Part shown: piece by piece, positions 2,890 through 63,127 of the stretch | How positions within the stretch are numbered: position 1 is the stretch's first letter | Layout: the number at the start of each line of letters is the position of its first letter | Source: Candidatus Kapaibacterium sp. | GTDB taxonomy: Bacteria; Bacteroidota; Ignavibacteria; Kapaibacteriales; Kapaibacteriaceae | Assembly (NCBI GenBank): GCA_018883125.1 | Contig: VEQR01000001.1 | Span: forward strand, 1,497 to 65,496 | DNA length: 64,000 nt | Direction: 5' to 3' | The notes under the pieces: generated by a model | What the model was told of the DNA's origin: nothing | The model's input: the letters and a program-made list of their open reading frames with translations, nothing else | The model's database searches: none | Made by a program: the position numbers and the translations under genes

Positions 2890-2899
2890 GTTCAGAGGG

Positions 2900-5304: not shown

Positions 5305-5310
5305 GGTCGA

Positions 5311-7978: not shown

Positions 7979-7988
7979 GCCGCTGAGC

Positions 7989-8312
7989 GGAATTACTGAA
8001 GTACGGAAGTACGGAAGTACCGAAGTACTGAAGTACGGAAGTACCGAAGTACGGAAGTACCGAAGTACGGAAGTACCGAAGTACGGAAGTACCGAAGTAC
8101 GGAAGTACCGAAGTACAATGGAGTGGCACCATATATGTCGCTTTCGTGGGAATGACAGACAATCACTTGTTTCGGCAGACCCCAATCGAGTGCATCAGTA
8201 CTTCAGTACTTTAGCAATTCAGTACTTCAGTACTTCAGTAATTCAGTACTTCAGTACTTCAGTACTTCAGTAATTCAGTAATTCAGTACTTCAGTAATTC
8301 ACTACTTCACCT
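7989..8312. repeat. Inverted 8-mer microsatellite arrays. About 16 copies of GAAGTACG/GAAGTACC lie on the left, then a roughly 80 bp spacer, then about 14 copies of CAGTACTT/CAGTAATT, which are the reverse-complement units.
   Basis: Read directly from the sequence. The right array runs up to the pepF start codon. Confidence 0.9.
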
Positions 8313-18277: not shown

Positions 18278-18289
18278 GGAGACACGACC

Positions 18290-45939: not shown

Positions 45940-47397
45940 ATGAGTTCCAAGATCGCCCGACTCGCATCGGACACCGTTGTCTATGGCATTTCGACCGTGC
46001 TGTCGAGGTTTCTGACGTTTCTGCTAACGCCGCTCTTTACGAACTACCTCAGCAAGACAGAGATCGGAGAGGTGGCGGCGATCTACGCGATGATCGCCTT
46101 CGTCAACATCCTCTATTCCTTGGGGATGGAGCCGGCGTTCATGCGGTTCTGGCACAAGGATGACGCAGAGGGGAACCAGCAGGTCTTCACCACGGCATTT
46201 TCAACGGTGGCGGCACTGAGTGTTGCTGTTACACTTGCAACAATCCTGCTGGCTGCGCCTATTGCCAGCTCGCCGATGCTTGCGCTGGGAGGTCAGGGGG
46301 CTCACCTTGTCCAGATCGCCGCGCTCATCCCATTACTCGATGGACTTGTGCTGATACCATTTGCCCAGCTTCGCATGCAGCGGCGTCCGCGTGTCTTTGC
46401 ATCGCTGCGTCTGCTGTCCGTTGTCGTGACCTTCGCCTTCACGCTGCTGTTCGTGGTCGGGTTTGGCTGGCGCATTGAAGGGGCTCTCTGGGCCGGCGTC
46501 ATTGGAAGTGCCACCACGTTTCTGGTGTTTTTACCGGGCATTGTCGGGACGCTTCGGTCAACAGTCTTTTCGGTACGTGGTCTGCTCCGACAGATGCTCG
46601 CGTTCGGTCTGCCCACCGTTCCATCGAATTTCTCGTCGATCATGGTGCAGGTGGCAGATAGACCCATCATGCTGATGCTTACCAGCAGCAGTGTTGTGGG
46701 GATGTATCAAACGAACTTCCGGCTGGCGTTGCCGATGATGATGTTCGTTACGGTGTTCGAGTATGCCTGGAAACCGTTCTACCTGAATCATCGTCACGAC
46801 GACGATGCCAAGCAGACCTTTGCAACCGTCTTCACAGCGTTCACCGCCGTGTGTGGTGCGATCTTCCTTGTTACGTCACTGTTCATTGAATACGTTGTAC
46901 AGCTGCCATTCATTGGTGGACGCTTCGTCAACCCGGAGTATTGGGACGGACTCACGATCATCCCGGTGGTGATGTTCGCCTACTTCTTCAACGGTGTGTT
47001 CATCAACATGGCTGCCGGACTGCATATCGAGAAGCGGACCGGGTTCTTTCCCATTGCCACGATCACGGCAGCCATCGTCAGTGTTTTTGCCACATGGCTC
47101 CTCGTCCCACCATACGGCATCATGGGAGCTGCCTGGGCAAAGGTTCTTGCCTACGTTGTGAGTGCCGTTATGCTGTTCGAATTCTCTCAGCGTGTGTACC
47201 CGATACGCTATGAATGGGGCAAGGTTGGTGTGCTTGTGAGCTCATCGGCCATTGCGTACCTCGGCGTGATCTCTGCTCCGCTTGAGGGCAACTTTATGAT
47301 CGCGGCTCGCGTTGCCGTCATTGCCGCATATAGTTCTGTCGCCTTCATGCTTCTCGGGGGACGACGTTCATCAATCAAGGGGCTGTTTCGGAGATGA
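45940..47397 (+). CDS. Oligosaccharide/polysaccharide flippase (MOP superfamily, Wzx-like)
   Basis: 485 aa with about 12-14 TM helices. The N-terminus IARLASDTVVYGISTVLSRFLTFLLTPLFTNYLSKTEIGE is typical of polysaccharide biosynthesis (PST) flippases. Confidence 0.8.
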   Translation: MSSKIARLASDTVVYGISTVLSRFLTFLLTPLFTNYLSKTEIGEVAAIYAMIAFVNILYSLGMEPAFMRFWHKDDAEGNQQVFTTAFSTVAALSVAVTLATILLAAPIASSPMLALGGQGAHLVQIAALIPLLDGLVLIPFAQLRMQRRPRVFASLRLLSVVVTFAFTLLFVVGFGWRIEGALWAGVIGSATTFLVFLPGIVGTLRSTVFSVRGLLRQMLAFGLPTVPSNFSSIMVQVADRPIMLMLTSSSVVGMYQTNFRLALPMMMFVTVFEYAWKPFYLNHRHDDDAKQTFATVFTAFTAVCGAIFLVTSLFIEYVVQLPFIGGRFVNPEYWDGLTIIPVVMFAYFFNGVFINMAAGLHIEKRTGFFPIATITAAIVSVFATWLLVPPYGIMGAAWAKVLAYVVSAVMLFEFSQRVYPIRYEWGKVGVLVSSSAIAYLGVISAPLEGNFMIAARVAVIAAYSSVAFMLLGGRRSSIKGLFRR

Positions 47398-50300
47398 AGA
47401 CTTCTCTCTACCTCATCGTTGCAAGCGTTGTTCTGGTATCGTGCAGTTCGCAGCGTGTTCCGGATGGACCATCGGTGAGTGGACGCAAAGAGTTCGATGA
47501 ACTCAAGCATCGCGACCCGGCGCTTGGCGTGGTTCCCACGGATATGCGTCAACGCGAACTGGCCTTTGCTCAACGACTTGCAGATCAGGTTCTCGAGAGC
47601 AAATCATCCGAAGAAGTGCAGGCGTATGCTTCGTGGAAGTCGGGCGGACCCTGGAACATTGGTGGACGCACCCGGGCAATTGCGTTCGACATTCGCGATG
47701 CGAAGACGATCATCATCGGAGCTGTGTCAGGGGGCATTTGGAAATCGACGGATGCCGGCGCTACATGGCAGATCTGCACAAAGCCGGATCAGCTGCATAG
47801 CGTTGCATGCGTTGCTCAGGACACACGCAAGGGCTTTGAAAACATATGGTATGCCGGCACAGGTGAGATCTACGGTAACTCGGCGCAGATCTCCGGTAAC
47901 GGCATTCTGAAGTCGACAGATAACGGTAATACGTGGAGCCCCTTGCCTTCAACGGTGAGCTCGAGCATTCCGGCAAATCATCAGTTCGCCTATACGTGGC
48001 GAGCTCTTGTTCACTCGCAACGGGATAGTCAGGAAGTGTACGTTGCCACAGCCCGTGCCGGTTTGTATCGATCGACGAATGGTGGGGCTGCGTGGACGGC
48101 AGTCCTTGGCAGCAACTCGATCTTTTCGGACGTGGTCGTTACCTCCAACGGAACCCTCTATGCAGCGTTTGCCGGGTTTACCGGAACGCAGGGCTCGATA
48201 TCATCCCGCTGGGGCGTGTTTCGTAGCACGAATGGTACCACGTGGACGAATGTGACGCCCCCTGACATGAAGAATACCGTCAAGCGCATTGTGCTAGCCC
48301 CTGTGCCGCAGCATCCGGAGCAGATATTCGTGTTGGCGGAAACCCCGGATCAGGGGGCGAAAGGTTCGACGATCTATCGTGGCGAAGAGCGCTTCGAATG
48401 GCACAGTCTGTGGAAGTATACACGCACCTCGGCCGACACCGGAACGTGGGAGAATCGCTCGGCCAACATTCCTTTGACCGATGAGCAGCGGGGTGACTTC
48501 TACTCACAAGGCGGATACGACCTGCTGGTAAAGGTCTCGCCGCATGATTCCAACCTTGTTGTTATCGGTGGCACGAACCTCTATCGTTCGACGGATGGTC
48601 TCATGTCCACCAAGAACACAAAGTGGATAGGGGGCTATTGGAAGCCGACCCCGTCATTCGATAAATACTCATCGTACAAGGACCATCATCCGGACCAGCA
48701 CGATGTGCTGTTTCATCCTGCAAATCCTAAGCAGATGTTCAGTGCAAACGACGGTGGGGTTTATGTGACCGATGATATCCTTGCCGATTCCGTTGTCTGG
48801 CGTGATCTGAACCGTGGATACTTGACGACGCAATTCTACACCGTTGATATTCCAAACATGCCAGGCTTTGAAACCTCGCGCAAGATCATCGGCGGTATGC
48901 AGGATAACTCTGTGTGGTTTCAGCGAGATGAAGACGAGCCCACAACAACTCCCTGGCTACGCGTGGGTGGCGGTGATGGTGCATACAGCTACTTCGTCAG
49001 CGGCGGACCATCATACTCGGTGTACTACTCTTCGCAACAGGGTCGCGTGTACTATGTGCGGTATGATTCCTCCGGCAAAGAGAGTTATCGAAAGCGTATC
49101 GATCCGATCGGACCAAAGGACTACTTGTTCATCAATCCGTATGTACCGCATCCGGTAGATCAACACATGATCTACATGGCGGGTGACAACCAGCTCTGGC
49201 GACTCAACGATGTGAACATGATTCCGGCTGGCAATTCGGATTCAACACTCATCGGATGGGACTCGCTTACGAAGACCAACGTAGGCACGGCGCAGATCTC
49301 GTGTGTACTGGCAACCACCACTGCTGATGGCAAACATCACCGTGTCTTTTATGGCACATCAAGCGGAAAGGTCTATCGGTTGGATTCAGCAGAAAGGGGC
49401 AATCCTACTCCGAAGGACGTTACATCCACCTCGATGCGCAGCGGTGCTTTCATAAATTCCGTGAGCATCGATCCCCGCAACCGAGAGCACGTTGTGGTGT
49501 GTCTGTCCAACTACGGCGTGGTGAGCATCTTTGAAACGTTCGATGCCGGCGACACATGGCAGGCTATCGCTGGGAATCTCGAAGAGAATCTCTCTGGAGT
49601 GGGCAATGGCCCGGCGGTAAACTGGGCAGCTATCCGTCCGTACGATGATAGCATAACGGTGCTGATCGCTGCAACTTCTACAGGACTCTACTTCACGCCG
49701 AGAACCAACGGTATGTCCACGGTGTGGACGCCAACAGCAACCGAAGAACTTGGTAATGTTCCCTGCGACATGGTCGTAACGCGGATGTCGATGAGTCCCA
49801 AGGCCGACAAGACCATTGCCGTAGCTACACACGGACGGGGAACGTGGTGGGGTGAGATCACCTCACTTCCGGCCCGTCCTTCTCGTGTGGAGCTTGCCTC
49901 GCCCCCTGACATGCGTCGGGGCATCCTACCCGACACCGTGCTCACGTGGAAGGCCGCAGCCGGCGCTGTTTCGTACTCGGTCTTTCTTGAATGTGCCGGC
50001 GATACGACGCGGAATGCATCGTATCAGGGAATTCGTGAAACATCTTTCAAGGTGCAGAATCTGAAGCAGGGCCCGGAACGATACACATGGACCGTTGAGC
50101 CGTATGGTGCTGGTGGAGCGGGAGAACGTGCACAGCAGTGGTCCTTTAGCACTGCTATTCGTCCGCCGGCACTGCTGAAGCCAGCCGCCGCCGCAACGGA
50201 TGTGTCACCGGTTGTGCTTGTGTGGGAACGCGTTCCGGGTGCACGGCGGTATGATGTGGAAGTTGCCGCGAACGCGGGTTTTAAGCCCATCGTCGCCAGC

Positions 50301-50702
50301 GCATCAGCACTTGCCGACACGAGTTACGCGGTGCCGGGACTTGAGAGCGCAAAGCGATACTTCTGGCGCGTGCGTTCTATTGATGATGACGCAACAGGAG
50401 TGTTCTCGGATCGGCAGTCGTTTGTTACCGGTACCATTACGGGTGTTGCCGATGTTGATTCTGATGCTGGCGCTGTGTCGCCGAATCCGGCTCATAACCG
50501 ACTCACCATAGCCCAGCCGACCGGAACCGATGGCCAGTACGTCATTGAACTCGTTGCCATTGATGGCCGCAGCATCCGACGTGTTGATTCGTCAGGGGGC
50601 TCAACAACCATCGACGTCAGCGACATTGCATCAGGCCAATACATTGTGCGTGTGACCGCCAATGGCGTTACGAAATCTTCTTCCGTTGTTATTCGCCACT
50701 AA
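47394..50702 (+). CDS. Large secreted BNR/Asp-box repeat (sialidase- or Sortilin-like beta-propeller) protein with fibronectin-III-like domains and a T9SS C-terminal sorting domain
   Basis: Lipoprotein-like signal (LVSCSS). Repeated SxDxGxTW Asp-box motifs (STDAGATW, STDNGNTW, STNGGAAW, TFDAGDTW). The C-terminus SPNPAHNRLTIAQP...GQYIVRVTANGVT matches the T9SS C-terminal domain. Confidence 0.75.
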   Translation: MKTSLYLIVASVVLVSCSSQRVPDGPSVSGRKEFDELKHRDPALGVVPTDMRQRELAFAQRLADQVLESKSSEEVQAYASWKSGGPWNIGGRTRAIAFDIRDAKTIIIGAVSGGIWKSTDAGATWQICTKPDQLHSVACVAQDTRKGFENIWYAGTGEIYGNSAQISGNGILKSTDNGNTWSPLPSTVSSSIPANHQFAYTWRALVHSQRDSQEVYVATARAGLYRSTNGGAAWTAVLGSNSIFSDVVVTSNGTLYAAFAGFTGTQGSISSRWGVFRSTNGTTWTNVTPPDMKNTVKRIVLAPVPQHPEQIFVLAETPDQGAKGSTIYRGEERFEWHSLWKYTRTSADTGTWENRSANIPLTDEQRGDFYSQGGYDLLVKVSPHDSNLVVIGGTNLYRSTDGLMSTKNTKWIGGYWKPTPSFDKYSSYKDHHPDQHDVLFHPANPKQMFSANDGGVYVTDDILADSVVWRDLNRGYLTTQFYTVDIPNMPGFETSRKIIGGMQDNSVWFQRDEDEPTTTPWLRVGGGDGAYSYFVSGGPSYSVYYSSQQGRVYYVRYDSSGKESYRKRIDPIGPKDYLFINPYVPHPVDQHMIYMAGDNQLWRLNDVNMIPAGNSDSTLIGWDSLTKTNVGTAQISCVLATTTADGKHHRVFYGTSSGKVYRLDSAERGNPTPKDVTSTSMRSGAFINSVSIDPRNREHVVVCLSNYGVVSIFETFDAGDTWQAIAGNLEENLSGVGNGPAVNWAAIRPYDDSITVLIAATSTGLYFTPRTNGMSTVWTPTATEELGNVPCDMVVTRMSMSPKADKTIAVATHGRGTWWGEITSLPARPSRVELASPPDMRRGILPDTVLTWKAAAGAVSYSVFLECAGDTTRNASYQGIRETSFKVQNLKQGPERYTWTVEPYGAGGAGERAQQWSFSTAIRPPALLKPAAAATDVSPVVLVWERVPGARRYDVEVAANAGFKPIVASASALADTSYAVPGLESAKRYFWRVRSIDDDATGVFSDRQSFVTGTITGVADVDSDAGAVSPNPAHNRLTIAQPTGTDGQYVIELVAIDGRSIRRVDSSGGSTTIDVSDIASGQYIVRVTANGVTKSSSVVIRH

Positions 50703-51407: not shown

Positions 51408-53141
51408 ATGCATGCCTTTGACTTTCTCGATGAACTCGCTCTGTTGTGTCTTGCGGCACTTGTAGTACTGCGCGTCTTCCGCCAGATTCATCTGCCCCCT
51501 GTCATCGGGTTGATCGTTACGGGGCTCCTGTTGGGTCCTACGGGGTTCGGGATAGTCCAGCAGGACCAGATCATATCCTCCATCGCCGAGATCGGGGTGA
51601 TGCTCCTGTTGTTTACGATCGGTCTGGAGTTCTCGCTAGACGAGCTCAGGAAACTCCGCTCGATCGTGCTGATCGGTGGCCCGCTGCAGATAATCCTTAC
51701 CACGCTCGCGACAACGGCGTTGGTATATGGGGTATCTGTCGTTGCATCCACCGCCTATTCGACCTCTGAAGCAATTCTGATTGGAATGGCCTCTGCCTTG
51801 AGTTCAACGGCGATCTGTATCAAGCTGTTGAGCGATCGTCGGGAGCTTATGCAACCACAGGGACGGGCGGCACTTGGCATTCTCATCTTCCAGGACATTG
51901 CCGTTGTCCCGATGATGATCATCGTTACGCTATTGGACACGCGTCAGGACGTGAACCCCGGTGAGATAACCGTGCGTTTGCTGCTGCTTGTTGCTGTGAC
52001 TGTTGCCATGATCGTTGGCATGCGACTGGTTCTTCCGCGTCTTACACCCCACCTGGCACGCTCCTCGAACCCGGAAGTCCTAATTCTTGCTGCGCTGGGC
52101 TTGTGTTTTGGTGCGGCATGGGTAACGTCGCTGGCTGGCATATCTATGGCTCTTGGAGCATTCATAGCCGGCATGGCTATCGCCGGTAGTGATGACGGCC
52201 ATGCCATTGGTAAGGCTGTAGAGCCGCTGCGCGATGCGTTCACCAGCATGTTTTTCCTTTCGGTGGGACTGTTGGTACACGTGGTGTGGGCGACCTTACC
52301 GGCGAACATTCTCACGGCGATGCTCATCCTATTGGTCAAGGGTGTTGTTGTAAGTCTGGTGCTGATCCTGGTTCGCGTTCCGATACGGACTGCTATCACC
52401 GCCGGCATCACACTTGCACAGGTGGGAGAGTTCTCCTTTGTACTTGCGTCCGTTGGAATGGATTACGGCGTTATCACTTCGACAGAGTTTCAGAATCTTC
52501 TGGTGACCATCATCATCACCATGATCGTAACGCCACTTCTCGTGACCTTTGCTCCTATAGTTGCTGAGCGTCTATCGCCCCTTGCGAGATTGACGCCCAC
52601 TCTACGCAGGTGGACAACTGATGATACCGATGGATACATCAGACTTGAGGAGGGAACTTTGCACGAAGATCAGCCGATGGTGCTCATCATCGGTGCTGGC
52701 GTTCTCGGACTCAATGTCGCGCACGTCCTGGCTCAGACAGGTATTCGATATCGTCTGCTGGAGTTGGACAGGAACAACGCTGCGGCCCTACGAGCTAAGG
52801 GAGAACCTTGCATATCGGGAGACATGACCGATGCAGACGCACTTCGTAGCGCTGGGATTCAACACGTCTCGAACGTCATCATCGCAATCAACCAGGATGC
52901 GGCCATCACGCGAGGCGTCAAACTCATCCGCTCCCTGCGTCCGGATGTCTACATCATTGTCCGCTCCCGCTACCAGCGCAACAGCAAGTCTGCCCTCGAT
53001 CAAGGAGCTGACCTAGTAATAGTGGAAGAGTTCGAGTCAAGCATCAAGATCTTCGGCTCCGTCCTTGAACACCTCGGCGTCGAACAAGACCTCATCGAAT
53101 ACCAGGAACGGTATATGCGACTGAGGCAGACGTTTTCATAG
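51408..53141 (+). CDS. CPA2-family cation:proton antiporter with a C-terminal RCK/TrkA-N domain (KefB/YbaL-like)
   Basis: About 12 TM Na+/H+ exchanger core followed by a Rossmann RCK domain (MVLIIGAGVLGLNVAHVLAQTGIRYRLLELD). Confidence 0.85.
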   Translation: MHAFDFLDELALLCLAALVVLRVFRQIHLPPVIGLIVTGLLLGPTGFGIVQQDQIISSIAEIGVMLLLFTIGLEFSLDELRKLRSIVLIGGPLQIILTTLATTALVYGVSVVASTAYSTSEAILIGMASALSSTAICIKLLSDRRELMQPQGRAALGILIFQDIAVVPMMIIVTLLDTRQDVNPGEITVRLLLLVAVTVAMIVGMRLVLPRLTPHLARSSNPEVLILAALGLCFGAAWVTSLAGISMALGAFIAGMAIAGSDDGHAIGKAVEPLRDAFTSMFFLSVGLLVHVVWATLPANILTAMLILLVKGVVVSLVLILVRVPIRTAITAGITLAQVGEFSFVLASVGMDYGVITSTEFQNLLVTIIITMIVTPLLVTFAPIVAERLSPLARLTPTLRRWTTDDTDGYIRLEEGTLHEDQPMVLIIGAGVLGLNVAHVLAQTGIRYRLLELDRNNAAALRAKGEPCISGDMTDADALRSAGIQHVSNVIIAINQDAAITRGVKLIRSLRPDVYIIVRSRYQRNSKSALDQGADLVIVEEFESSIKIFGSVLEHLGVEQDLIEYQERYMRLRQTFS

Positions 53142-53144
53142 AAT

Positions 53145-53400
53145 TACAGAGTTATAGAATTACTGAATTACTGAATTACTGAATTACGGAATTACGGAAT
53201 TACTGAATTACTGAATTACGGAATTACTGAATTACTGAATTACGGAGTTACGGAGTTACGGAGTTACGGAATTACTGAATTACGGAGTTATCAGACTCGT
53301 CACTTGTCACTTGTCACTCGTCACTCATCAGTAATCAGTAATCAGTAATCAGTAATCAGTAATCAGTAATCAGTAATCAGTAAACTCTCGTCACTCGTCT
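53145..53400. repeat. Microsatellite array of about 19 copies of GAATTACT/GAATTACG/GAGTTACG (8-mer), then a GTCACTYGTCAC spacer, then 8 copies of AATCAGT (7-mer, inverse orientation)
   Basis: Read directly from the sequence. It fills the whole gap between the convergent CPA2 antiporter gene and the cytochrome c/monooxygenase gene. Confidence 0.9.
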
Positions 53401-55002
53401 CTACTTCTTCACCACCACCCTGCACGAAGTGGTGCCTGTTGGTGATGTAGCTCGGACAAGGTACGAGCCCTGCGGAACTGATTCTGCTGGGATTGTGATG
53501 GACGAGACACCTTGCGGAACGGGCCGTGTGAAGGCTGAGCCGATGACACGTCCACTGAGGTCGATGATGTCGAAGGTCATGGTGCGATCTTCGGTCGACT
53601 CGACGGCGAGGGTGATGTGGCTTGATGTAACTGTGGGACGAGCTTCAATGGACAAGCCGAGGATGTCCGCATCGCCGCTTACGGAGGTTGGCAGCTTCGT
53701 CTCCATATCGAGTGATTCATCTCCGGCTTGATATGGAAGCCAGTGGAAGTAACAGAGCAGCATTTCGTCGGTAGTGCTCTCGCCCCATCGGACAAGCTTT
53801 GGAGGGTTGTTCGGATTCTCCAAGTTATTCATGGTATTGTCGTAGGTGGCCTCGTAGAAGAGCTTCGACCCACGAGGAATTCGAACCGGGTTCTTGAATG
53901 TATAGCCCCCTTGCCAATGGAAGTCCCACTGCGGTACGGAGATCAATCGAATGGTGTCGCCCTTGGGCGTGGTAGCATAGGCCCGACAGTTCTTACCCAG
54001 CAGGTGCATGTGTGGGGCAACGCCAACCACGCTGATCTCTGCGGGAATCGTAAAGGTGGTGGTGAAGGATTGAACTCTATTCGCGGGAATCTGAAACTGT
54101 TGGCCGGCAACAAGCTGACGTGGATTTATCGCGAATTCCTGCACCTGTCGCACTTCGTCGGACGAATGGAAGAATATGTTCACGAGAGAACGGTCCGTCT
54201 GCTCTGTCTTTGAAGGGGCGTAGTGAACCTGGATCACAAGGTCGGAGTTCTTGTACATCGCTGAGCCGATCGTGGGCGGATAGAAGCGCGTTTGCGCACC
54301 CGGAACCCACCCAAGAAACGAGACTGCTGATTCAAACCCTGGATCACCAAAACCACTGTAGCCCGGTAGCGGATCCTCGGCGTCCTTCTTGCGAGCTGTT
54401 CCGGTGGTGTCCAAGAAGTACAGGACGTGGTGCACTACGGAGGCATTACCCGGGCGGAACTCGATGGCCTTAACGCTGCGGTCCTGCAAGAGCTTGGTAG
54501 GCAGGACGAAAAAGCGATACACATCCTTATAGTTCGACTGGATGGTCCACGTTTCGTTCATCGTCAGCACAAGGTCCGGAGTGCCAAGCTGAGAGCCGCT
54601 GGGAAATGAAGGGGGCTTAGGAGCCGATGATAGATCACCTGCTGGCATACCGCCATCCACCCACTTCGCAATGGTCTCGATATCGGTTTCGCTGAGTGAA
54701 CGGTTTCCAACAAAGGTTCCGTGACCTTTTGCCGGGGGCCATGGGGGCATTTCGCGTTCCTGCACGGCACGCTTGATCGAATATCCGAAGTCGGAAGCCT
54801 GTTCAAAGGTCTCGAGTGGGAAGGGGGCTATCTCGCCGGTTCTATGGCACGATGTACAATTGGCGTAGATGATGCGTGCCACGTCAGCTGACCACGTGGG
54901 CACCTCCGCAGCATGAAGTCTACTACCAACCAGCGTTAGGACAAGAAGAAGAATCGTATTTCGCATGCGAGCCTCCGGAAATGAGCGTGCATAGACACTC
55001 AT
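53401..55002 (-). CDS. Secreted fusion of an N-terminal c-type cytochrome domain, a copper type II ascorbate-dependent monooxygenase-like (PHM/DBH-like) domain, and a C-terminal T9SS sorting domain
   Basis: Signal peptide. Haem-binding CTSCH (CXXCH) in a PSCyt-like region (IIYANCTSCHRTGEIAPF). Monooxygenase copper sites HHVLYF... and HMHLLG (H-x-M CuM site). The C-terminus SYLVRATSPTGTTSCRVVVKK is T9SS CTD-like. Confidence 0.75.
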   Translation of the reverse strand: MSVYARSFPEARMRNTILLLVLTLVGSRLHAAEVPTWSADVARIIYANCTSCHRTGEIAPFPLETFEQASDFGYSIKRAVQEREMPPWPPAKGHGTFVGNRSLSETDIETIAKWVDGGMPAGDLSSAPKPPSFPSGSQLGTPDLVLTMNETWTIQSNYKDVYRFFVLPTKLLQDRSVKAIEFRPGNASVVHHVLYFLDTTGTARKKDAEDPLPGYSGFGDPGFESAVSFLGWVPGAQTRFYPPTIGSAMYKNSDLVIQVHYAPSKTEQTDRSLVNIFFHSSDEVRQVQEFAINPRQLVAGQQFQIPANRVQSFTTTFTIPAEISVVGVAPHMHLLGKNCRAYATTPKGDTIRLISVPQWDFHWQGGYTFKNPVRIPRGSKLFYEATYDNTMNNLENPNNPPKLVRWGESTTDEMLLCYFHWLPYQAGDESLDMETKLPTSVSGDADILGLSIEARPTVTSSHITLAVESTEDRTMTFDIIDLSGRVIGSAFTRPVPQGVSSITIPAESVPQGSYLVRATSPTGTTSCRVVVKK

Positions 55003-55037
55003 GCAATATCCGAAGTTTAATCAGGGCTGCGAAGTCG

Positions 55038-55949
55038 TTACTTGATAACCGTCACCTTGAATGTGGCCGACGCTGGGTTTTTCTCGGCGTTATCATAATT
55101 GTTGAAGCGCACCGTAACCGTGTTGTCAGCCGAGACCCAGCCAGTATAGCAGCTGTTTATGAGGACTGCTGCATTGGGAACTCCGACAACCACCATATCA
55201 CCTGTTGCCGCCCCATTTACTGTGATGGTCAGATCACTCGATGTTCGTGTTGCCGTTATTGGGAAGTCCAGAGTAGCCGATGCAACCGTGAGTTGACGCC
55301 ATGAAATTGTGCCGGAGCTATTGACGGATGCCACAGCTTCACCAAGCTGTGTTCCGTTTGTGGAAGCAACAGCCGGAAGGGCTGTGGGCCACGTATAGGA
55401 AACATTGCGAATTCGGGAAAGATCGCCATTCGATGACACCTGAAAGACGGACGCGCCGGTGTTGTCCTGCAATTCGAGGAGATTCGCCGATGCTAGTGCC
55501 GCGCCACGGATGATCAGCCCCTTCTTCGCGGCAGAGTCGATCGTCACATGTAGTCGCGCTCCCGGTACAGTGTTTCCGAGCCCAACGCTGGTGCCGTTCT
55601 GATACATACTGCTGTTAGCAACGGTTGACGACGACGTAAACATCGGGATATAGTTTGATGATCCTGAGCTGCCAATTGACGACAATGCTGAGGTCCAAGA
55701 AAGGTTGCCGGTACCATCATTACTTAGTACGCTACCAGAAGCCCCCTGACCACTGGGAAACGCTAGCGAATAGGATGAGCTCAGCGTCGGAAGCGTGATC
55801 TTCAGCGAGCTACCGCTACCGTTGTGCTGGATATGCAGCTCACGCGTGTAAAGCGGAACCTGAGCACGCACGTGAACAGTAGTTCCAAGCCAGAGCAGCA
55901 GCCAGAGTCCTGGTATAGCGAGCCGTATGGTAATCGAACCAAGGATCAT
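55038..55949 (-). CDS. Secreted Ser/Thr/Gly/Asn-rich beta-fibre-like protein, paralog 1 of 3
   Basis: Signal peptide MILGSITIRLAIPGLWLLLWLGTTVHVRA. It shares blocks with the two upstream paralogs (YTRELHIQHNGSGSSLKITLPT...LSWTS; C-terminal FKVTVIK). The ORF extends to 56042. Confidence 0.6.
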   Translation of the reverse strand: MILGSITIRLAIPGLWLLLWLGTTVHVRAQVPLYTRELHIQHNGSGSSLKITLPTLSSSYSLAFPSGQGASGSVLSNDGTGNLSWTSALSSIGSSGSSNYIPMFTSSSTVANSSMYQNGTSVGLGNTVPGARLHVTIDSAAKKGLIIRGAALASANLLELQDNTGASVFQVSSNGDLSRIRNVSYTWPTALPAVASTNGTQLGEAVASVNSSGTISWRQLTVASATLDFPITATRTSSDLTITVNGAATGDMVVVGVPNAAVLINSCYTGWVSADNTVTVRFNNYDNAEKNPASATFKVTVIK

Positions 55950-56045
55950 TTCGTTCGTAGTTGGTGAAACGAGATTGAAGGTGTGGTCACCCCCCGTTCC
56001 AATCGGCCGTCGCGATCGGCCGAATGGGGGAAGGGTATTCACAGA

Positions 56046-57077
56046 TTACTGGGCCTTGATGACCAGGTAGTTCACCGTACCGGTGTACTGACCCGAGAAT
56101 GTCACCGTGAAGCCTGTACCTGCGGTGCGGGAAGTGATCGTTGCCGTAACGGAGGTGGAGCCTTCTAGGGTCAGGATGATAGCGTCCGTGGCGCTGAGAG
56201 TTGTAAGGCCCGTTACGGTGGCGGATGTAGCCGCTGTCACCGTTGATTGACCAGCAGTACGGATACCAATGGCACTGTTTATGCTCTGCCAGGCCGGTGT
56301 TGCGCCTGTGCCTTGTGACACCAAAACATCTCCGGTGGTGCCTGCAGATCCTTGCATTTGCAGGGGGCTGGTTGCACCGGCAAGGTTCAGCGTGCCAGTC
56401 TGCGTAACCGTTCCGGTTGTGGAGATCGAACCACCAGTGCGTCCGATGGCCACCGTACCGGCTGTGGCGCCGGTTCCGATGTTGGTAGCGTCGGTACCGG
56501 AAGCGTTGATGTTTGCAACACCCGTGAGATTCGTCGTGCCGAGAATGTTCACCGTGTTACCAGCTTTACCGATGTTCGTTGTGGCGCCGGCATTTGTTCC
56601 GTCGTTGATGCCAATCACGCCAGCGTTTGTGATAGACATCCGCTCGAGGTTGTTTGTCACAATACTCAAACCATGATTGCTCGTTGCACCGATCGTTCCG
56701 GTTGCCGTGAGCGTGTTACCGCCAATGGCCCAATTGGGATTGGAGCTTCCGGCAGGGTCCACCCACTCAAGGGCAGTACCGGTCCACCGTAGAGTCCAGC
56801 CGGCGGCTGACGGAGTGTTCGACCAAGCAAGACCGCCCGTTGTGGTGTTGCTGTAGATCAGAGCACCGTTACCGGGAACGGCAGACGGCAGCGTAAGAGT
56901 GTAGGGCGTCGTGACGGTAGCGGGCACCGTCAAAGAGATTGTTCCACTGGTGCTACCCTGCATCTTCAGTTCCCTTGTCTCGATAGGAAGGGTTGACTGA
57001 CCGAAGGCAAGCATCGGCAGAAAGGCTGTGAGAACGAGTGCCGCTAGGATCACCTGCGGACGGTTGTGTGTCGGCAT
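56046..57077 (-). CDS. Secreted beta-fibre-like protein, paralog 2 of 3
   Basis: Signal peptide MPTHNRPQVILAALVLTAFLPMLAFG. ETRELKMQGSTSGTISLTVPATVT...GGLAWSN parallels paralog 1. Gly/Thr/Asn-rich repeats. C-terminal GFTVTFSG. Confidence 0.6.
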   Translation of the reverse strand: MPTHNRPQVILAALVLTAFLPMLAFGQSTLPIETRELKMQGSTSGTISLTVPATVTTPYTLTLPSAVPGNGALIYSNTTTGGLAWSNTPSAAGWTLRWTGTALEWVDPAGSSNPNWAIGGNTLTATGTIGATSNHGLSIVTNNLERMSITNAGVIGINDGTNAGATTNIGKAGNTVNILGTTNLTGVANINASGTDATNIGTGATAGTVAIGRTGGSISTTGTVTQTGTLNLAGATSPLQMQGSAGTTGDVLVSQGTGATPAWQSINSAIGIRTAGQSTVTAATSATVTGLTTLSATDAIILTLEGSTSVTATITSRTAGTGFTVTFSGQYTGTVNYLVIKAQ

Positions 57078-57109
57078 GAAAGCCTCCTCGAATGATGATG
57101 ATGAAAACG

Positions 57110-58156
57110 TTAGAGGTTGATGACCATCCAACTAAAAGAAGTATTCGGGGCTAGGCCGCCTGCGAAGGACACCGTAAATCCGTTTACTGTACGTTGTGAG
57201 ATGGCATACGCTGTCGTGCCATCGGGCGAGTCTATTGTGATGAGAATGCGGGCGTTGGGAAGAAGCACCGGTAGTGCAACTGGCGCCGCGGTTGTGGTGT
57301 TGATCGTGACAGTGTAGAGCCGGTTCGCGGTGACGTTCACGTAACGACCCGACGCGATCTGCAGCGTAGATGTCTGAACGTTGCCAACCGGCACTGTAGT
57401 GATGGACGAAACGCGACCATCTTTGCCAACCGTGATACGAGGCACATTGACCGAGTCACCGTATGTGCCTGGTGCTACGCCTGTACCCCTTAGGTGACGT
57501 GACGTGATCGATGAATCTCGAACGCCAATTGCAACGGCCGGACCGTCTGGATTCTGAATCCGCAGAACGGAATCCTGCGTAGTGATCGTCACGATGCCCT
57601 TTATCGCCGTCGCATCAATGGTCACATCACTTCCATCCTGGGTGATGATGAGCCCTCCCGCTGCGATAATGTTAACGTCACCCTGAGCCCCATTCAAGCT
57701 GCGAACCACACCCTTGGCACCGGGTAGAAGTCCACCAGCTACGACAGACTGTTGGGCTACAGCGGCATAGGGAGCTGTTGTCAGTTTAGTGCGCGGCTCG
57801 AATGCTGTCTGTGATGTCCCGGGTAGTCCGACTTCCACCCAGAGTTGTTGCGTGAAGTCCACCTCCTCAAGAGACTCCTGTTCACCAATGATCAGGTTGA
57901 AGACCCCACCGACGATACTTGTAGAAATGACATCCTGATAGACTGGTGTACCGCCTTGCTGACTAGTATACAACTTGACAGATATGGCATACCGCCCATC
58001 CGGGTAGACAGAGCCATCGGGTTGCACCAATACCCCCTGAAACGAGAGCAGTTGTGGTATTCGAGTGCCATTACCTTGAGCAGCAAGGTGCATGCAACTG
58101 AGGAAGACAACAATGAGCCCTGCAAGCAAGCGCAGGTATGTGCTTGTGGTAGCCAC
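57110..58156 (-). CDS. Secreted beta-fibre-like protein, paralog 3 of 3
   Basis: Signal peptide MATTSTYLRLLAGLIVVFLSCMHLAAQ. N-terminal module IPQLLSFQGVLVQPDGSVYPDGRYAISVKLYT...GTPVYQDV...GGVFNLIIG. C-terminal NGFTVSFAGG. Confidence 0.6.
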   Translation of the reverse strand: MATTSTYLRLLAGLIVVFLSCMHLAAQGNGTRIPQLLSFQGVLVQPDGSVYPDGRYAISVKLYTSQQGGTPVYQDVISTSIVGGVFNLIIGEQESLEEVDFTQQLWVEVGLPGTSQTAFEPRTKLTTAPYAAVAQQSVVAGGLLPGAKGVVRSLNGAQGDVNIIAAGGLIITQDGSDVTIDATAIKGIVTITTQDSVLRIQNPDGPAVAIGVRDSSITSRHLRGTGVAPGTYGDSVNVPRITVGKDGRVSSITTVPVGNVQTSTLQIASGRYVNVTANRLYTVTINTTTAAPVALPVLLPNARILITIDSPDGTTAYAISQRTVNGFTVSFAGGLAPNTSFSWMVINL

Positions 58157-58157
58157 G

Positions 58158-58739
58158 CTATCGGATCCGTGTAATGGTAGTTGAGTACATGATTCGTCGT
58201 TGCCGCAGAGGTTCAGTCACAGAGATCCGAACTGTATAGCTGCCACTAGCGATGGGGGTGCCGAGTGACGTCAATCCGTCCCACGTGAATGTTGCAGCAT
58301 CATCGCGAAGCATGGCTACCGGGAGTGTCGCAACGTGCTCGCCGACACTATTGAAGACGTCGGCATCGGCAACCGTTGAGCCAGAGAGCTGCACTTCGAT
58401 ACTCACGTTCTCACGAAAGGGATTCGGCCAGGACCAGGTTCTCGAACCGGCGGTAACGCCTTCTGTTCCTTCGTCGGCGCCGAGGATGATCGGCTTAGGA
58501 ATCCAGAAGCCGAAAAGCCCTTGAGAGCGATTAGCCGAACTGACAGTACCGATGGTTGTCAGGCCAACGATGGTGCTCATCATGAAGGGTGTATTTGCCT
58601 TCGATGTGTCGAGTACGGCACCGCAGGACTGTACTACACGCTGACGTTGAATCGTCAGCCGGGGGTGGATGACATTCTGTGCCGAACAGACTCCGGCGCA
58701 GAATGCGACAAGACCCAGGATCGTCCATGACCTTTTCAT
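58158..58739 (-). CDS. Small secreted protein with a T9SS C-terminal sorting domain
   Basis: Signal peptide MKRSWTILGLVAFCAGVCSA. The C-terminal roughly 85 aa (WPNPFRENVSIEVQLSGSTVADADVFNSVGEHVATL...GSYTVRISV) match the T9SS CTD signature. Its stop is 2 nt from the paralog-3 start. Confidence 0.6.
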   Translation of the reverse strand: MKRSWTILGLVAFCAGVCSAQNVIHPRLTIQRQRVVQSCGAVLDTSKANTPFMMSTIVGLTTIGTVSSANRSQGLFGFWIPKPIILGADEGTEGVTAGSRTWSWPNPFRENVSIEVQLSGSTVADADVFNSVGEHVATLPVAMLRDDAATFTWDGLTSLGTPIASGSYTVRISVTEPLRQRRIMYSTTITRIR

Positions 58740-58758
58740 CGGATCGTGTCTTGGAATC

Positions 58759-59391
58759 TCAGTTGAAGTAGAACCCGAGCGTGAAGTTCACGTTCGATAT
58801 TCCCATGGTTACGTCAACGGATGTTGGGCCATCGGTCTCCACTCCAGACGCGTTCTTGAGCTTATCCGCAGTATGGGTGAATCCAAGTCCATACTCGATG
58901 GAGAGCGAGAGATTCTTCCAGGCAAACCACTCGGCACCGGCAAACAGTCCGGCACCAAGGGTGGTAGTGCTCACCGTGCTAACGTCGCTGCCTGCTGCAG
59001 TGTTCTTCACCTGGCCGATGCCGATCATTGCTTGACCGCCGGCATAGAGTGCCACATTGGAGTTGTTGAAGAGGTTATACCGTGCTCCAGGTGCAATGCT
59101 GAAGGTTGTCGTGGTGGTCTCTTCATCTGCAGTGTTGTTCTTTGTCAGCGTGTTGCTGCCAAAGCCAAGACCTACTCGTAGAGCAAGGTTGTCCGACATA
59201 AACGTGGAGATTCCCGCTCCGCCCATGTAATTGCCGGCGCTCAGGTCAGACAGGCCTTTCAGGGTGAACAGCAGGGCTGAGGCGCCTTGCTTGTTGCGTA
59301 TCATTGTCTCGTCTTGTGCCTTGGCGCTTGTCAGCGGGGTTGTGAGCATTACAGCTCCGAGAAGCAACGAGGCGAAGAAATGCTTCATCAT
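58759..59391 (-). CDS. Small outer-membrane beta-barrel protein (OmpW/OmpA-beta-barrel-like, porin_2-type)
   Basis: Signal peptide MMKHFFASLLLGAVMLTTPLTSAKA. Alternating beta-strands ending in the terminal aromatic FTLGFYFN. The ORF-track start at 59466 is trimmed to the signal-peptide Met. Confidence 0.65.
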   Translation of the reverse strand: MMKHFFASLLLGAVMLTTPLTSAKAQDETMIRNKQGASALLFTLKGLSDLSAGNYMGGAGISTFMSDNLALRVGLGFGSNTLTKNNTADEETTTTTFSIAPGARYNLFNNSNVALYAGGQAMIGIGQVKNTAAGSDVSTVSTTTLGAGLFAGAEWFAWKNLSLSIEYGLGFTHTADKLKNASGVETDGPTSVDVTMGISNVNFTLGFYFN

Positions 59392-59504
59392 GTCGAGTCC
59401 TTCAAACGGTGGTGATGAATTCGAAACCCTCTGGTGATTTCGGTGTCCAAACATCCATGCATTCACTCGTAGAATTCCTACCCGTTTGTCGCCCTACGGC
59501 CCAC

Positions 59505-61979
59505 ATGCGTATCCTCGTAACCATGCATCTGATCGTGATCTGCATGATGTTCCTCACGGTCCGGACGGTGGCATCAGAAGATCAGATCGTGCTCTCGGGA
59601 ACCATTGTTGATTCGGCGTCCGGTGAGCCCCTTGCCGGTGCATCAATTCGAGCGGAAGGCCTACAAACAGGGACGTACACGGGAAAGCGCGGCACCTTTC
59701 GGTTGCCGGTGGCAGCGTCCACGAAGTACCTGATAGTTCGAAGTATCGGCTACAAGGAGAGACGCATTGAGATGCCTTCGGTGGCCTCGAGTGTTCGCAT
59801 TGCAATGCTGCAAACGGGTGTATCGCTGCGGGGTGTGAATGTCGTGGCAGACATCACGCCGGAGGAGGTCATACGTCGAGCGATCGAGCGACGAGACGCC
59901 AACGCACGACGCATTCGCACCGTAGTCAGCTCCCTCTATTCGAAGGTTCGATTTGCGCTTGACTTAGCTGGTATGGGTCGCTCAAACCAGCAGCAGCAGG
60001 ATGTGATCCTTGAAACGTTCTCGACGATTACGGAACGTCGAATACCCGATCAGCGTAAGCACGTACGCATCGAGCAACGTCGGCAGACGGCCAACATTCC
60101 AGCCCAAGAGAACACTGCAGTGTTTGATGAATTCTTCGACTTCACGCTCGATGAACTGAATATTCTCAAGACCAAGCTTGTGACGCCATTGGGAAAGAAT
60201 GCTCTCAAAGAATACAACTACGCGATTACCGGGAAGAGCACGCTTGACTCGCAGGTTGTTTATGAGATGTCCTTTGCTCCGCGCTCGAGTCTCTTTCCCG
60301 GTTTTGCAGGAACGCTCAGCATCGTTGACGGTACCTATCAGATTATCGCAGCCACGTTTGCCCCCTCCAAGGAAACGTCATTCCCATTTCTCAAGGGGCT
60401 GACCTTTGAGCAACGATATGACCGAGTGAAGGATAGTATCTGGATGCCGACGTTTCAGCTGACGACAGCCTCTCTGCGCCTGAATGTTGTGACGGGGCTG
60501 ATCACCGTGAAGGCCGATGTGCGTGCGCAGACAAATGTCCGCTCGGTTGATGTGAACGTGGGTGTTCCCGACAGTCTATTCATGCCCAAGAAACTCTCCC
60601 GGGAGGACTCTCTTGCTCTGGCCGAGGCGGCTGACATGGCGGGTGGCGTAGAGATCGACACGCCAAAGGTTCGCATCGATGTCGACTCCACGGCCGACTC
60701 ACTGCGTCCGGATTTCTGGGCATCTCATGCCTTTGCCGAGCAGTCGGAGGAAGAGGTCAAGGTCTATGCCAAGCAGGACAGTATTCAGAAGGCCGGCGGA
60801 AATGATTCAGATTCCGAAAGCAGCGGTCCGCTTTCGGGCTCGATGTTCACCCTCGCACGAAGTGGTGACTTCACGTTGGGTATAGACCCTCTCTTCAACT
60901 ATTCCTCCATCAGTCAGACGGTGTACGGCGCTTCGGTCACCGCCAAGCTGGCTCCGGTGCGCATGACGCTGTCGGGAGGTTTCGGGTCTGGTGGTACACG
61001 ATTCGGACGTGTGGCAATGGATGCGACATTATACCGAGCTCGCAGACTGTCACTCGCCGTCTCCGGCAGCGTCTATTCGTCGCTGGCCAGCGTACAGGCG
61101 GCCAAGACAACGCAGCTCAGTTTTAGTAGCATTGATCTAGCAAATCTGTTATTCCCTGAGTATCAGGACTTCTTTCGACGTGACGGATTCGCTCTTGGGC
61201 TTCAGGCACGCTCGCGATGGGTTACAACAACTTTGGAAGCAAGCTGGTCACGTCACATCAACATGCCCCTTCTCGACTCGCTGCCGCGTCCGCGCGTGTT
61301 GGCCCGCGAGGGAGACTTTCAGGTGCTGTCTCTGACGGCTCGCTCGCCCCGTTCCTTCGGGTCGATCTTCGGTGGTTCGTCGGATCCCTTCTCGGGACTT
61401 ATCCATGGAGTTGTCGGCCGCGAGACCGTTTCCGGATCAAGCTTCTGGTCGGTCGATGCCTCCACCACGCTTCGCCTGCCCACGTATGAAACCGGATACT
61501 CTCCGATGCTCCTGGAGCTGACGCTGGCAGGGGGCGTGCAGGCAACGGAAACACCGAACCAATACCGGTTCGTTGCAATGCGGGCCTTCCCGACATTCGG
61601 GATCCTGTCGGACTTTCCGACGATTGGGATCAATGCCTTTGCCGGCACGGAGTTCGTGCGTTTTGGCCTCGAGCACAATTTCACCGATCTCTGGTGGCGG
61701 GCCATTGGCCTTCCCGGACTTGTCTTTGGTCGGGGAGTGGACCTGATCGGCGTCCTCAACGGCATCAGCACCACGAACCGTGCGGGTGCTGTTGTGCCCG
61801 GCGTCAGCTTCGACAGCACCAATGGTGTGTACATGGAGGCGGGCGTGGGTGTGGCTCGGATTCCGAGCTTCATCAGTGATCTGTTAACGCTCCGTGTTGA
61901 TGCACGCTGGCCAGTGGGGCCGTTAGCACATAACGGGTCATTTGGATGGATTCTGACCCTGTCCAGCCCCCTTCAATAA
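59505..61979 (+). CDS. Protein with a carboxypeptidase-regulatory-like (CarbopepD_reg) domain plus DUF5686
   Basis: After a TM/signal segment, LSGTIVDSASGEPLAGASIRAEGLQTGTYTGKRGTFRL is a CarbopepD_reg signature. The long beta-rich remainder is typical of the Bacteroidota DUF5686 family. Confidence 0.7.
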   Translation: MRILVTMHLIVICMMFLTVRTVASEDQIVLSGTIVDSASGEPLAGASIRAEGLQTGTYTGKRGTFRLPVAASTKYLIVRSIGYKERRIEMPSVASSVRIAMLQTGVSLRGVNVVADITPEEVIRRAIERRDANARRIRTVVSSLYSKVRFALDLAGMGRSNQQQQDVILETFSTITERRIPDQRKHVRIEQRRQTANIPAQENTAVFDEFFDFTLDELNILKTKLVTPLGKNALKEYNYAITGKSTLDSQVVYEMSFAPRSSLFPGFAGTLSIVDGTYQIIAATFAPSKETSFPFLKGLTFEQRYDRVKDSIWMPTFQLTTASLRLNVVTGLITVKADVRAQTNVRSVDVNVGVPDSLFMPKKLSREDSLALAEAADMAGGVEIDTPKVRIDVDSTADSLRPDFWASHAFAEQSEEEVKVYAKQDSIQKAGGNDSDSESSGPLSGSMFTLARSGDFTLGIDPLFNYSSISQTVYGASVTAKLAPVRMTLSGGFGSGGTRFGRVAMDATLYRARRLSLAVSGSVYSSLASVQAAKTTQLSFSSIDLANLLFPEYQDFFRRDGFALGLQARSRWVTTTLEASWSRHINMPLLDSLPRPRVLAREGDFQVLSLTARSPRSFGSIFGGSSDPFSGLIHGVVGRETVSGSSFWSVDASTTLRLPTYETGYSPMLLELTLAGGVQATETPNQYRFVAMRAFPTFGILSDFPTIGINAFAGTEFVRFGLEHNFTDLWWRAIGLPGLVFGRGVDLIGVLNGISTTNRAGAVVPGVSFDSTNGVYMEAGVGVARIPSFISDLLTLRVDARWPVGPLAHNGSFGWILTLSSPLQ

Positions 61980-62013: not shown

Positions 62014-63127
62014 ATGTTTGAGCCACAAAAGCAACAAGTGAGTGAACTCCGCGCCCGGGTGGACCAATTGCGGAGGTTCCTTTGACATCGATCGTAAACG
62101 CGACGAGATAGCAGAACGGGAGATGCTCTCCCAAGCACCAGATTTTTGGGATGATGCCCAAAAGGCGCAGAAGATGATGCAGGAGGCGGCTACGCTCAAG
62201 GATTGGGTGCAGACCTGGGAGCAGGCACAGGGCAGTGTGGGCGATGTAGAGGCCCTGATTGAGCTGGCCGAAGAAGTCGACGATGCCTCAATGGAGGCAG
62301 ATATTCTCTCGGAGCTCTCGAAGTGCCTAACGGCGGTCGATGAGCTGGAGCTTCGGAAGATCCTCTCGGGTCAGGACGACAACCGTAACGCCATTCTGAC
62401 GATCAATGCCGGTGCCGGCGGAACAGAAGCGCAAGACTGGGCGGAGATGCTCATGCGTATGTACACCCGTTGGGCCGAAAAGCACGGATTCGAGGTCTAC
62501 CTTGCCGAAGAGCAGGAGGGCGACACCGCGGGTATCAAGAGCTGCACACTGGAGATACGCGGCCGGTATGCATATGGATATCTCAAGGCCGAGAACGGTG
62601 TGCATCGACTGGTCCGCATCAGTCCCTACGATTCCAATGCCCGACGTCACACGTCGTTTGCGTCCGTGTTCGTGTACCCGGAAGTAGAGGACGACGTTGA
62701 GATCGTGATCAATCCAGCAGATGTAGAAATGGACACGTTTCGGTCAGGGGGCAAGGGCGGACAAAACGTCAACAAAGTGGAGACCGCCGTGCGTTTGCGT
62801 CACATCCCTTCGGGTGTTGTTGTGGCGTGTCAGCAGGAGCGGTCGCAGTTGCTCAACCGCGAGCATGCGATGAAGATGCTCAAGTCTCGCCTGTATCAGA
62901 TCCGACGCGAAGAAGAGGAAGCCGCAAAGGCCGCCATCGAAGGTTCCAAGAAGAAAATTGAATGGGGCTCGCAGATACGCAGCTACGTCTTCCAACCGTA
63001 CACCATGGTGAACGATCACCGCACCGAAACCAAGATCACGGACGTGCACTCGGTGATGGACGGAGATCTCGACGAGCTCATCAAGGCCTATCTGCTGTTA
63101 GAAGATCAACTCAATTCGGCGGCGTAG
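62014..63127 (+). CDS. prfB: Peptide chain release factor 2, translated with a programmed +1 ribosomal frameshift. Frame 0 runs 62014-62082 and the +1 frame runs 62084-63127.
   Basis: Frame 0 encodes [23 protein letters not shown] then the in-frame stop TGA. The +1 frame continues [11 protein letters not shown]... through the GGQ motif [27 protein letters not shown]. The shift site CTT TGA C, with GGAGG 3 nt upstream, is the canonical RF2 autoregulatory site. Confidence 0.9.
62071..62086 (+). promoter_or_regulatory. prfB +1 programmed frameshift site (internal SD-like GGAGG, then CUU UGA C)
   Basis: GCGGAGGTTCCTTTGAC read directly. It matches the conserved RF2 frameshift cassette. Confidence 0.85.

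Follow-up and report, generated by a model that had tools for sequence, protein, structure and literature searches.

The window analysed here, a stretch of 64,000 nucleotides (nt) of contig VEQR01000001.1, derives from a Candidatus Kapabacteria metagenome-assembled genome, a lineage that NCBI places within the Bacteroidota; among its products, g4 matches NCBI protein FGM32_00230 at 100% identity. Between positions 53401 and 59391 it carries, as a sequence-only reading of the window had described, six co-directional open reading frames (ORFs), all on the minus strand; plus-strand genes flank them on either side. They are numbered g6 to g1 in their reading direction (Table 1). The subject of this report is g1, which encodes a c-type cytochrome joined to a two-copper core resembling peptidylglycine alpha-hydroxylating monooxygenase (PHM) and dopamine beta-hydroxylase (DBH) and to a C-terminal sorting domain (CTD) of the type IX secretion system (T9SS), together with its relation to the fibre-like and outer-membrane proteins encoded ahead of it. 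Gene starts were chosen from homologue support and from Shine-Dalgarno sequences, such as GGAGG ahead of the g1 start at 54966 and GAGGAGG ahead of the g3 start at 57077. With these starts the gaps from g6 to g1 measure 19, 1, 32, 96 and 71 nt, a spread of 1–96 nt where 2–35 nt had been claimed. All six products have N-termini that read as signal peptides.

Table 1. Features of the g6–g1 region and its flanks (window positions)
Feature	Position	Strand	Basis or remark
g6: small outer-membrane beta-barrel protein, 210 aa, signal peptide	58759-59391	-	Pfam
g5: small secreted protein, 193 aa, FlgD_ig/T9SS-CTD-like C-terminus	58158-58739	-	Pfam, CTD hidden Markov model
g4: fibre-like protein, 348 aa; MAT_N-like beta-rich N-domain, low-confidence shaft, C-terminal beta-sandwich	57110-58156	-	NCBIfam, AlphaFold2
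g3: fibre-like protein, 343 aa; N-terminal module common to g2, C-terminal module common to g4	56046-57077	-	BLASTP
g2: fibre-like protein, 303 aa	55038-55949	-	BLASTP against g3
17-nt conserved element TAAACTTCGGATATTGC	55003-55019	-	53 nt upstream of the g1 start codon
g1: cytochrome c + PHM/DBH-like copper monooxygenase + T9SS CTD, 521 aa	53401-54966	-	profiles, fold, alignment
g1 cytochrome c domain, residues 22-112	54631-54903	-	CxxCH at 54844-54858 (C37, C40, H41); candidate axial Met73
g1 PHM/DBH-like two-copper core, residues 120-425	53692-54609	-	Foldseek, hhalign
g1 T9SS type-A C-terminal sorting domain, residues 440-521	53404-53649	-	TIGR04183
kef-like gene	51408-53141	+	flank on the g1 side
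DUF5686 gene, 856 aa	59409-61979	+	flank on the g6 side

The copper core of g1 is only partly visible to sequence profiles. The Pfam family Cu2_monoox_C is matched at 29.9 bits against a cut-off of 23 (4.7e-7) and is found in all 25 members of an alignment of the g1 family (41–80% identity), and the N domain, Cu2_monooxygen, gives a weak 13.3 bits against 30 and reaches E<0.05 in 8 of the 25. Searches of the PDB sequences with g1 itself or with the family profile returned only T9SS CTDs and weak cytochrome c6 matches and did not find PHM, so that fold and profile-profile comparisons were needed. The AlphaFold2 (AF2) model of g1 has a predicted local distance difference test score (pLDDT) of 85 and a predicted template modelling score (pTM) of 0.70. 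Its best PDB match in Foldseek is human DBH (4zel, 1.6e-13), and 29 PHM entries follow at 2e-12 to 4e-9, among them 1phm at 6e-12, with template modelling scores of up to 0.65 on PHM. A comparison by hhalign of the family profile with the rat PHM core, whose sequence was checked and is identical to 4e4z_A, gave a probability of 91.9% and an E value of 7e-7.

In this alignment H107, H108 and H172 of rat PHM fall on H179, H180 and H248 of g1, the proposed ligands of the CuH site, and H242, H244 and M314 fall on H319, H321 and M402, the proposed CuM ligands. None of the six varies among the 25 aligned homologues. The sequence-only reading had set the absence of the copper-ligand histidines on proper alignment as its own refutation; they are present. 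The substrate-anchoring residues give a different picture, since two of the three that hold the peptidylglycine carboxylate in PHM are not conserved: Arg240 is replaced by Ala317 and Asn316 by Leu404, and g1 is therefore not a PHM in the strict sense. Tyr318 of PHM corresponds to Tyr406, though this position varies within the family.

The N-terminal domain adopts a helical, class-I-like fold in the AF2 model and carries the haem-binding motif C37-T-S-C40-H41. These two cysteines and the histidine, together with Met73 in an MPPW motif, are invariant in the 25 aligned homologues, and we infer that Met73 is the axial haem ligand. The best-scoring cytochrome family is Cytochrome_CBB3, at 15.4 bits against a cut-off of 27 (E 0.02), with E<0.05 in 14 of the 25 members; the domain appears to be of generic class-I type. 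The earlier label of a PSCyt-like cytochrome had to be given up, as no PSCyt family is among the matches of g1 or of any of the 25. At the C-terminus the T9SS type-A model TIGR04183 is matched at 26.5 bits against a cut-off of 23. Por_Secre_tail (PF18962) is matched in 24 of the 25 members, at best at 2.9e-12, with g1 itself at 19.5 bits and below the gathering threshold, and among solved structures the family profile finds the T9SS CTDs 8glk_D and 8qb1. The fusion of haem c to a PHM/DBH-like core and a T9SS CTD, for which confirmation of fold and haem site by profiles and structure prediction had been proposed, is thus borne out by Foldseek, hhalign, the invariant CxxCH and Met73, and TIGR04183. 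By its sequence g1 is a widespread but uncharacterised cytochrome-c-fused variant of the PHM/DBH copper monooxygenases.

PHM/DBH-type copper monooxygenases have been studied almost solely in animals, where they serve to produce neuropeptides and catecholamines and depend on ascorbate. With the catalytic core of rat PAM (1phm/4e4z) g1 shares the two-domain beta-sandwich, the HH...H and HxH...M order of the six copper ligands and the local motifs VHH, QVHY, HxHxLGK and DEM. It differs in an overall identity of 15–17%, in the loss of the R240 and N316 equivalents, in being bacterial, in its N-terminal c-type cytochrome and C-terminal T9SS CTD, in having no PAL partner, and in an electron donor that is presumably haem, not ascorbate. 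The DBH/tyramine beta-monooxygenase (TBM) group provides the best structural match and likewise places a redox or ligand-binding domain ahead of the copper core (DOMON in DBH), but the N-terminal domain of g1 is a cytochrome with covalent haem c, there is no dimerisation domain, and secretion would be by the bacterial T9SS. A functional analogy, and one of function only, may be drawn with the cytochrome of cellobiose dehydrogenase (CDH), which together with lytic polysaccharide monooxygenase (LPMO) forms a system where an extracellular copper oxygenase is fed by a dedicated haem domain; the two are not homologous and have different haem types, copper sites and folds.

The family to which g1 belongs is large. 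More than 1381 homologues were found at E<=1e-5 in Kapabacteria, Ignavibacteria, Hymenobacter, Saprospiraceae and other Bacteroidota, all of them generically named, and a search with the PHM-like domain alone yielded 8603 clusters (at 50% identity) at E<=1e-3, of which 1287 lie at E<=1e-30. Architectures were read in the top 150 cluster representatives of the latter search. The arrangement cytochrome-PHM-CTD occurs in 68, redoxin-cytochrome-PHM in 30 and cytochrome-PHM in a further 30; cytochrome-PHM-redoxin (2) and a doubled redoxin-cytochrome-PHM (1) are rarer. The cytochrome domain is present in at least 133 of the 150, and a redoxin is fused in 33. When five fused proteins were checked by Pfam, the redoxin was recognised in all five, a cytochrome c family in four and a Cu2 monooxygenase family in three. 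The redoxin-cytochrome c-PHM-like fusions, found in Planctomycetes and others (e.g. MBL8820231.1), share 38–47% core identity and the same cytochrome domain with g1. They differ from it in carrying the redoxin in the same chain and in lacking a T9SS CTD, and they bear generic names such as 'redoxin domain-containing protein'. Full-text searches of a literature library turned up no paper that describes a cytochrome c-PHM/DBH enzyme from bacteria or a T9SS copper monooxygenase, in keeping with the earlier remark, made of the whole gene arrangement, that no assigned function was known.

The gene neighbourhood of the enzyme was surveyed in 80 loci from species-representative genomes by clustering the ORFs within 7 kb of the enzyme gene, with extra contigs added (loci are given below by L numbers). 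In 56 of the 80 loci, all among L012–L080, an immediate same-strand neighbour of the enzyme gene encodes a redoxin of about 170 aa. Its product has a Redoxin/AhpC-TSA fold and a signal peptide, and has no CTD; invariant in it are the Cys of a CPI[S/C]Q motif, a TPE motif, Y.GR and a C-terminal GC. There is no conserved CxxC, the second position being Ser in 63% of the sequences. The redoxin is an N-terminal fusion in other phyla and a separate adjacent gene in most Bacteroidota. Homologues of g2–g6 were found in none of the 56 redoxin-neighbour loci, nor in the Hymenobacter or Saprospiraceae loci, and the ORF clusters of the 80 loci contain no conserved candidate for a substrate gene. Gene fusion and gene neighbourhood therefore tie the enzyme to the redoxin, not to the fibres, and the family-wide conserved partner is a redoxin-fold protein.

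Some members of the family are duplicated. In 15 of the 80 loci (e.g. L038 and L061) the cytochrome c-PHM-like gene is preceded by a second, tandem copy, and a protein of 1064 aa (P0182) is an in-chain duplication of the cytochrome c-PHM-like protein with EF-hand motifs.

Within the Kapabacteria the enzyme gene sits in a conserved backbone, sir2-prfB-DUF5686 on one side and kef-yggS followed by a BNR protein gene on the other. The full five-gene block g6–g2 lies between DUF5686 and the enzyme in the window, in L001, L019, L081, L085 and L086, and in the P0121 contig, which matches the window. Enzyme identity to g1 is 66–80% in the five L loci, and the seven loci together span 66–100%. The block is absent and the enzyme adjoins the DUF5686 gene in L003, whose enzyme is 85% identical, and in L006, L007, L043 and L047; an unrelated reverse-strand gene lies upstream of the enzyme in L005 and L008–L011. 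Two loci are intermediate. In L087 a g6 homologue (49% identical) stands alone directly upstream of the enzyme and the fibre genes are absent. In L013 a chimeric ORF of 142 aa (9495-9923), in which a g6-like N-terminus is joined to the C-terminus of g2, precedes the enzyme; it is a deletion scar and shows that this relative has lost the fibre block. The converse situation, the core of FlgD_ig protein, g4-like and g3-like genes with no enzyme or outer-membrane protein (OMP) gene seen, is found in L083, L088, L089 and L090. A search for the fusion beside fibre-like genes in other Bacteroidota had been suggested; the six-gene order was found in one Kapabacteria sublineage only.

The products of g6 and g5 are as the sequence-only reading had them. 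The former matches OMP_b-brl (1.1e-10) and OMP_b-brl_2 (3.1e-9) in Pfam, as befits an outer-membrane beta-barrel. The latter, called a small T9SS-CTD protein, matches FlgD_ig above the cut-off (3.4e-8) and TIGR04183 below it (0.012); a hidden Markov model (HMM) of the g1-family CTD matches its residues 119-193 at 2.9e-6, and g5 therefore carries a related CTD. No CTD is present in g2–g4. The description of these three as tandem fibre paralogs holds only weakly. In pairwise BLASTP comparisons g2 is 24% identical to g3 across 282 aa (E 0.015), and g3 has in common with g4 a C-terminal stretch of 46 aa alone (E 0.005), so that modules are indeed shared, but paralogy is weak and mosaic, and g2 and g4 show no significant similarity. 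A weak Pfam match to He_PIG (0.015) was recorded for g2. Against PHROGs, g2–g5 gave two weak matches only, both to families of unknown function, one of them between the C-terminal 73 aa of g2 and phrog_19253 (3.8e-4); it is the g2 C-terminus that is retained in the scar ORF of L013. The g3 product is 41% identical to that of the gene following the g4-like gene in L083.

With 61 matches, without exception named hypothetical, the family of g4 is a small one. The N-terminus of g4 matches Bdello_MAT_N (NF053851) at 3.3e-5, with 23.7 bits against a cut-off of 60. In the mosaic adhesive trimer (MAT) proteins of Bdellovibrio the signal peptide is reported to be followed by a conserved, beta-rich N-domain some 130 aa long, and the adhesive tips vary (PMC10769870). 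The g4 protein appears to resemble them in its signal peptide, beta-rich N-domain, variable shaft and beta-sandwich tip, and g2–g4 resemble them in their mosaic modules. They are unlike in the sub-threshold score, in length (about 350 as against about 1000 aa), in the lack of an S74 domain, in a host that is not a predator and in the coupling of the g4 gene to that of a small T9SS-CTD protein; trimerisation and adhesion of g4 are putative. In the AF2 monomer of g4 (mean pLDDT 60) the N-domain (37-110) and the C-domain (267-346) are folded and residues 127-224 lie below 50, a low-confidence shaft such as might be expected of a trimeric fibre modelled as a monomer. Foldseek gave weak matches to the receptor-binding domain of a cyanophage tailspike, R-pyocin fibres, phage tail-fibre proteins and the H-type lectin Helix pomatia agglutinin, which at this model quality are hints only. 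The g5-like gene always abuts or overlaps the g4-like gene, from a 7-nt gap to a 4-nt overlap, in the window (58156-58158), L081, L083 (7993-8001), L088 (8998-9001), L089 (6590-6593) and L090 (5610-5613), which hints at a putative adaptor-and-cargo pair for T9SS export.

Outside the lineage of the window, the fibre cassette of L083, L088 and L089 is divergent from a gene pair encoding a DUF2341 protein (1066–1120 aa) and an OmpA-domain protein (739–764 aa), at 1704-7177, 2712-8128 and 39-5692, respectively.

Directly upstream of g1 lies a 17-nt element, TAAACTTCGGATATTGC, present in a single copy in the window. The same pattern occurs at the same place in L001, L003, L013, L019, L081 and L086, and with one variant position in L085, so that eight of the nine loci compared carry it ahead of g1 (seven exact, including the window, and one variant). 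The element is there irrespective of its upstream neighbour (g2, the scar ORF or the divergent DUF5686 gene), and is a candidate for a g1-specific promoter or operator. In L003 about 82 nt separate the divergent DUF5686 and enzyme genes, and an enzyme promoter would therefore lie within them. Probably g1 has its own promoter, and read-through from g2 into g1 may occur in addition. Matches to promoter and terminator consensus sequences were no commoner in a scan than in shuffled sequence, and Rfam gave no match in 53000-59700. By inspection the element does not fit a sigma-54 or a Bacteroidota -7/-33 promoter; an extracytoplasmic function (ECF)-like AAC...TC promoter is possible. A compensatory leader hairpin upstream of g1, suspected by eye, was dropped when RNAalifold found no consensus structure.

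In the spacer between the OMP and enzyme genes of L087, at about 6950-6985, a GC-rich hairpin runs into T8 (GGTGCCAT...ATGGCACC TTTTTTTT); it has the look of an intrinsic terminator and stands only some 15 nt ahead of the enzyme start codon.

Taken together, the row probably consists of separable units that are colinear in one Kapabacteria sublineage: a T9SS-routed haem-copper monooxygenase with a redoxin partner, an independent fibre cassette and an OMP. The g1 product would be a three-domain redox enzyme, routed by Sec and the T9SS, with a copper core of the non-coupled two-copper type. Its haem and copper would be acquired in the periplasm. The haem c domain is envisaged to take the place of ascorbate and to feed the three-His copper site (H179, H180, H248) with one electron at a time; the electrons would then move on to the His-His-Met site (H319, H321, M402) for the activation of O2 and the hydroxylation of a C-H bond, in a substrate that is presumably other than peptidyl-glycine. 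The CTD would route the folded enzyme to the cell surface, and the redoxin could act as its upstream electron donor or as a periplasmic maturation factor. In the second unit, g5 to g2, a surface fibre or adhesin cassette may be formed by a CTD protein coupled to a MAT-like fibre and by two mosaic fibre proteins, and the third unit, g6, would be a small OMP barrel able to neighbour the enzyme alone.

Several points weigh against this view. If the redoxin is periplasmic and the enzyme exported to the surface, the two would occupy different compartments, which is awkward for an electron relay, and the redoxin partner was not found in the window by tblastn or with an HMM built from 57 partners. 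No paper on the family came to light, as noted. Seven loci, at 66–100% enzyme identity, have all six genes in the same order, and the association is not a fleeting accident. All gaps are at most 96 nt, with no convincing terminator between g2 and g1, and the promoter role of the 17-nt element is one that we infer. A broader proposal, which we hold to be rather unlikely in its full form, is that enzymes of the g1 type are self-sufficient copper monooxygenases in which a covalently fused cytochrome c, fed by the thiol-type redoxin, replaces ascorbate, and which in Bacteroidota are exported by the T9SS to hydroxylate an extracellular or surface substrate; the target here could be the lectin-tipped fibres encoded upstream. 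Such enzymes, if the proposal is true, would stand in bacteria for pairings such as DBH with cytochrome b561 and LPMO with CDH.

The sequence-only reading had treated the six genes as one operon and functional system, in which the enzyme might hydroxylate the co-encoded fibres or be held at the surface by them. The shared strand, the gaps of 1–96 nt, the signal peptides on all products and the retention of the order across seven loci with enzyme identities as low as 66% speak for such a system. We nevertheless regard it as improbable, for each half of it is found on its own: the enzyme without the fibres in L003, L006, L007, L043, L047 and L087, with the scar in L013 besides, and the fibre cassette with no enzyme in view in four loci (L083, L088, L089 and L090). 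The 56 redoxin-neighbour loci and those of Hymenobacter and Saprospiraceae, which contain no g2–g6 homologues, argue in the same direction, as do the redoxin as the conserved partner and the conserved element directly upstream of g1. The fibres as substrate or surface anchor of the enzyme thus find no support; what is observed is that g1 adjoins an unrelated adhesin-like cassette.

A different objection concerns the chemistry. The PHM scaffold may have been retained without substrate hydroxylation, with redoxin, haem c and the two coppers forming an electron chain to O2 or peroxide, as in an oxidase that oxidises thiols or generates disulfides, an enzyme for handling peroxide or a protein of copper or redox homeostasis. 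This would suit the thiol-type redoxin that is fused or adjacent across the family, the replacement of the substrate-anchoring R240 and N316 by Ala and Leu and the lack of a conserved candidate substrate gene nearby. We consider it doubtful, because the O2-activating His-His-Met site and the three-His site are both complete and invariant, and this pairing is typical of the C-H hydroxylating PHM, DBH and TBM enzymes; moreover the redoxin partner has no conserved CxxC and most often a Ser in its second position. It is also conceivable that the haem and CTD-like domains have decayed and that g1 is a periplasmic protein with a cytochrome of merely structural value. The sub-threshold scores of both domains in g1 (Cytochrome_CBB3 and Por_Secre_tail) fit this, but the invariance of CxxCH and Met73, the TIGR04183 score above its cut-off, the Por_Secre_tail matches in 24 of the 25 members, the profile match to solved T9SS CTDs and the cytochrome domain in at least 133 of the 150 top representatives make decay very improbable. 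The reading as separable units, with g1 as a haem-fed copper monooxygenase, remains the one that we favour.

The wider interest of g1 lies in a large bacterial PHM-like clade with an intact copper site in the members examined, a built-in cytochrome c, a recurrent redoxin and, in Bacteroidota, a T9SS signal. The combination of cytochrome, redoxin and export suggests a new way of powering PHM/DBH chemistry, and an extracellular or periplasmic substrate. Members of the clade occur in cultured Hymenobacter species, and the question is therefore open to experiment. For annotation the locus carries a warning, as a tidy co-directional row of genes can be a lineage-specific juxtaposition of unrelated modules.

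Some further features of the window deserve mention. The intergenic region between the convergent kef-like gene and g1 (53141-53383) is filled by short tandem repeats, namely an 8-mer GAATTACT/G about 18 times, the 7-mer ACTCGTC about 5 times and the 7-mer ATCAGTA about 8 times; in the relatives L019 and L085 this spacer measures just 33–40 bp or so. Two more ORFs of the window carry a CTD related to that of g1, as judged by the family CTD HMM: one at 18278-19900 (+, 9e-16) and one at 47334-50702 (+, 2e-12), the latter encoding a BNR/Sortilin-like protein of 1102 aa, one of the enzyme's conserved neighbours in the backbone. Finally, prfB (RF2) at 62014-63127 contains a canonical programmed +1 frameshift site, CTTTGAC at 62080-62086 with GGAGG ahead of it, its first 22 codons from the ATG at 62014 being in the other frame.

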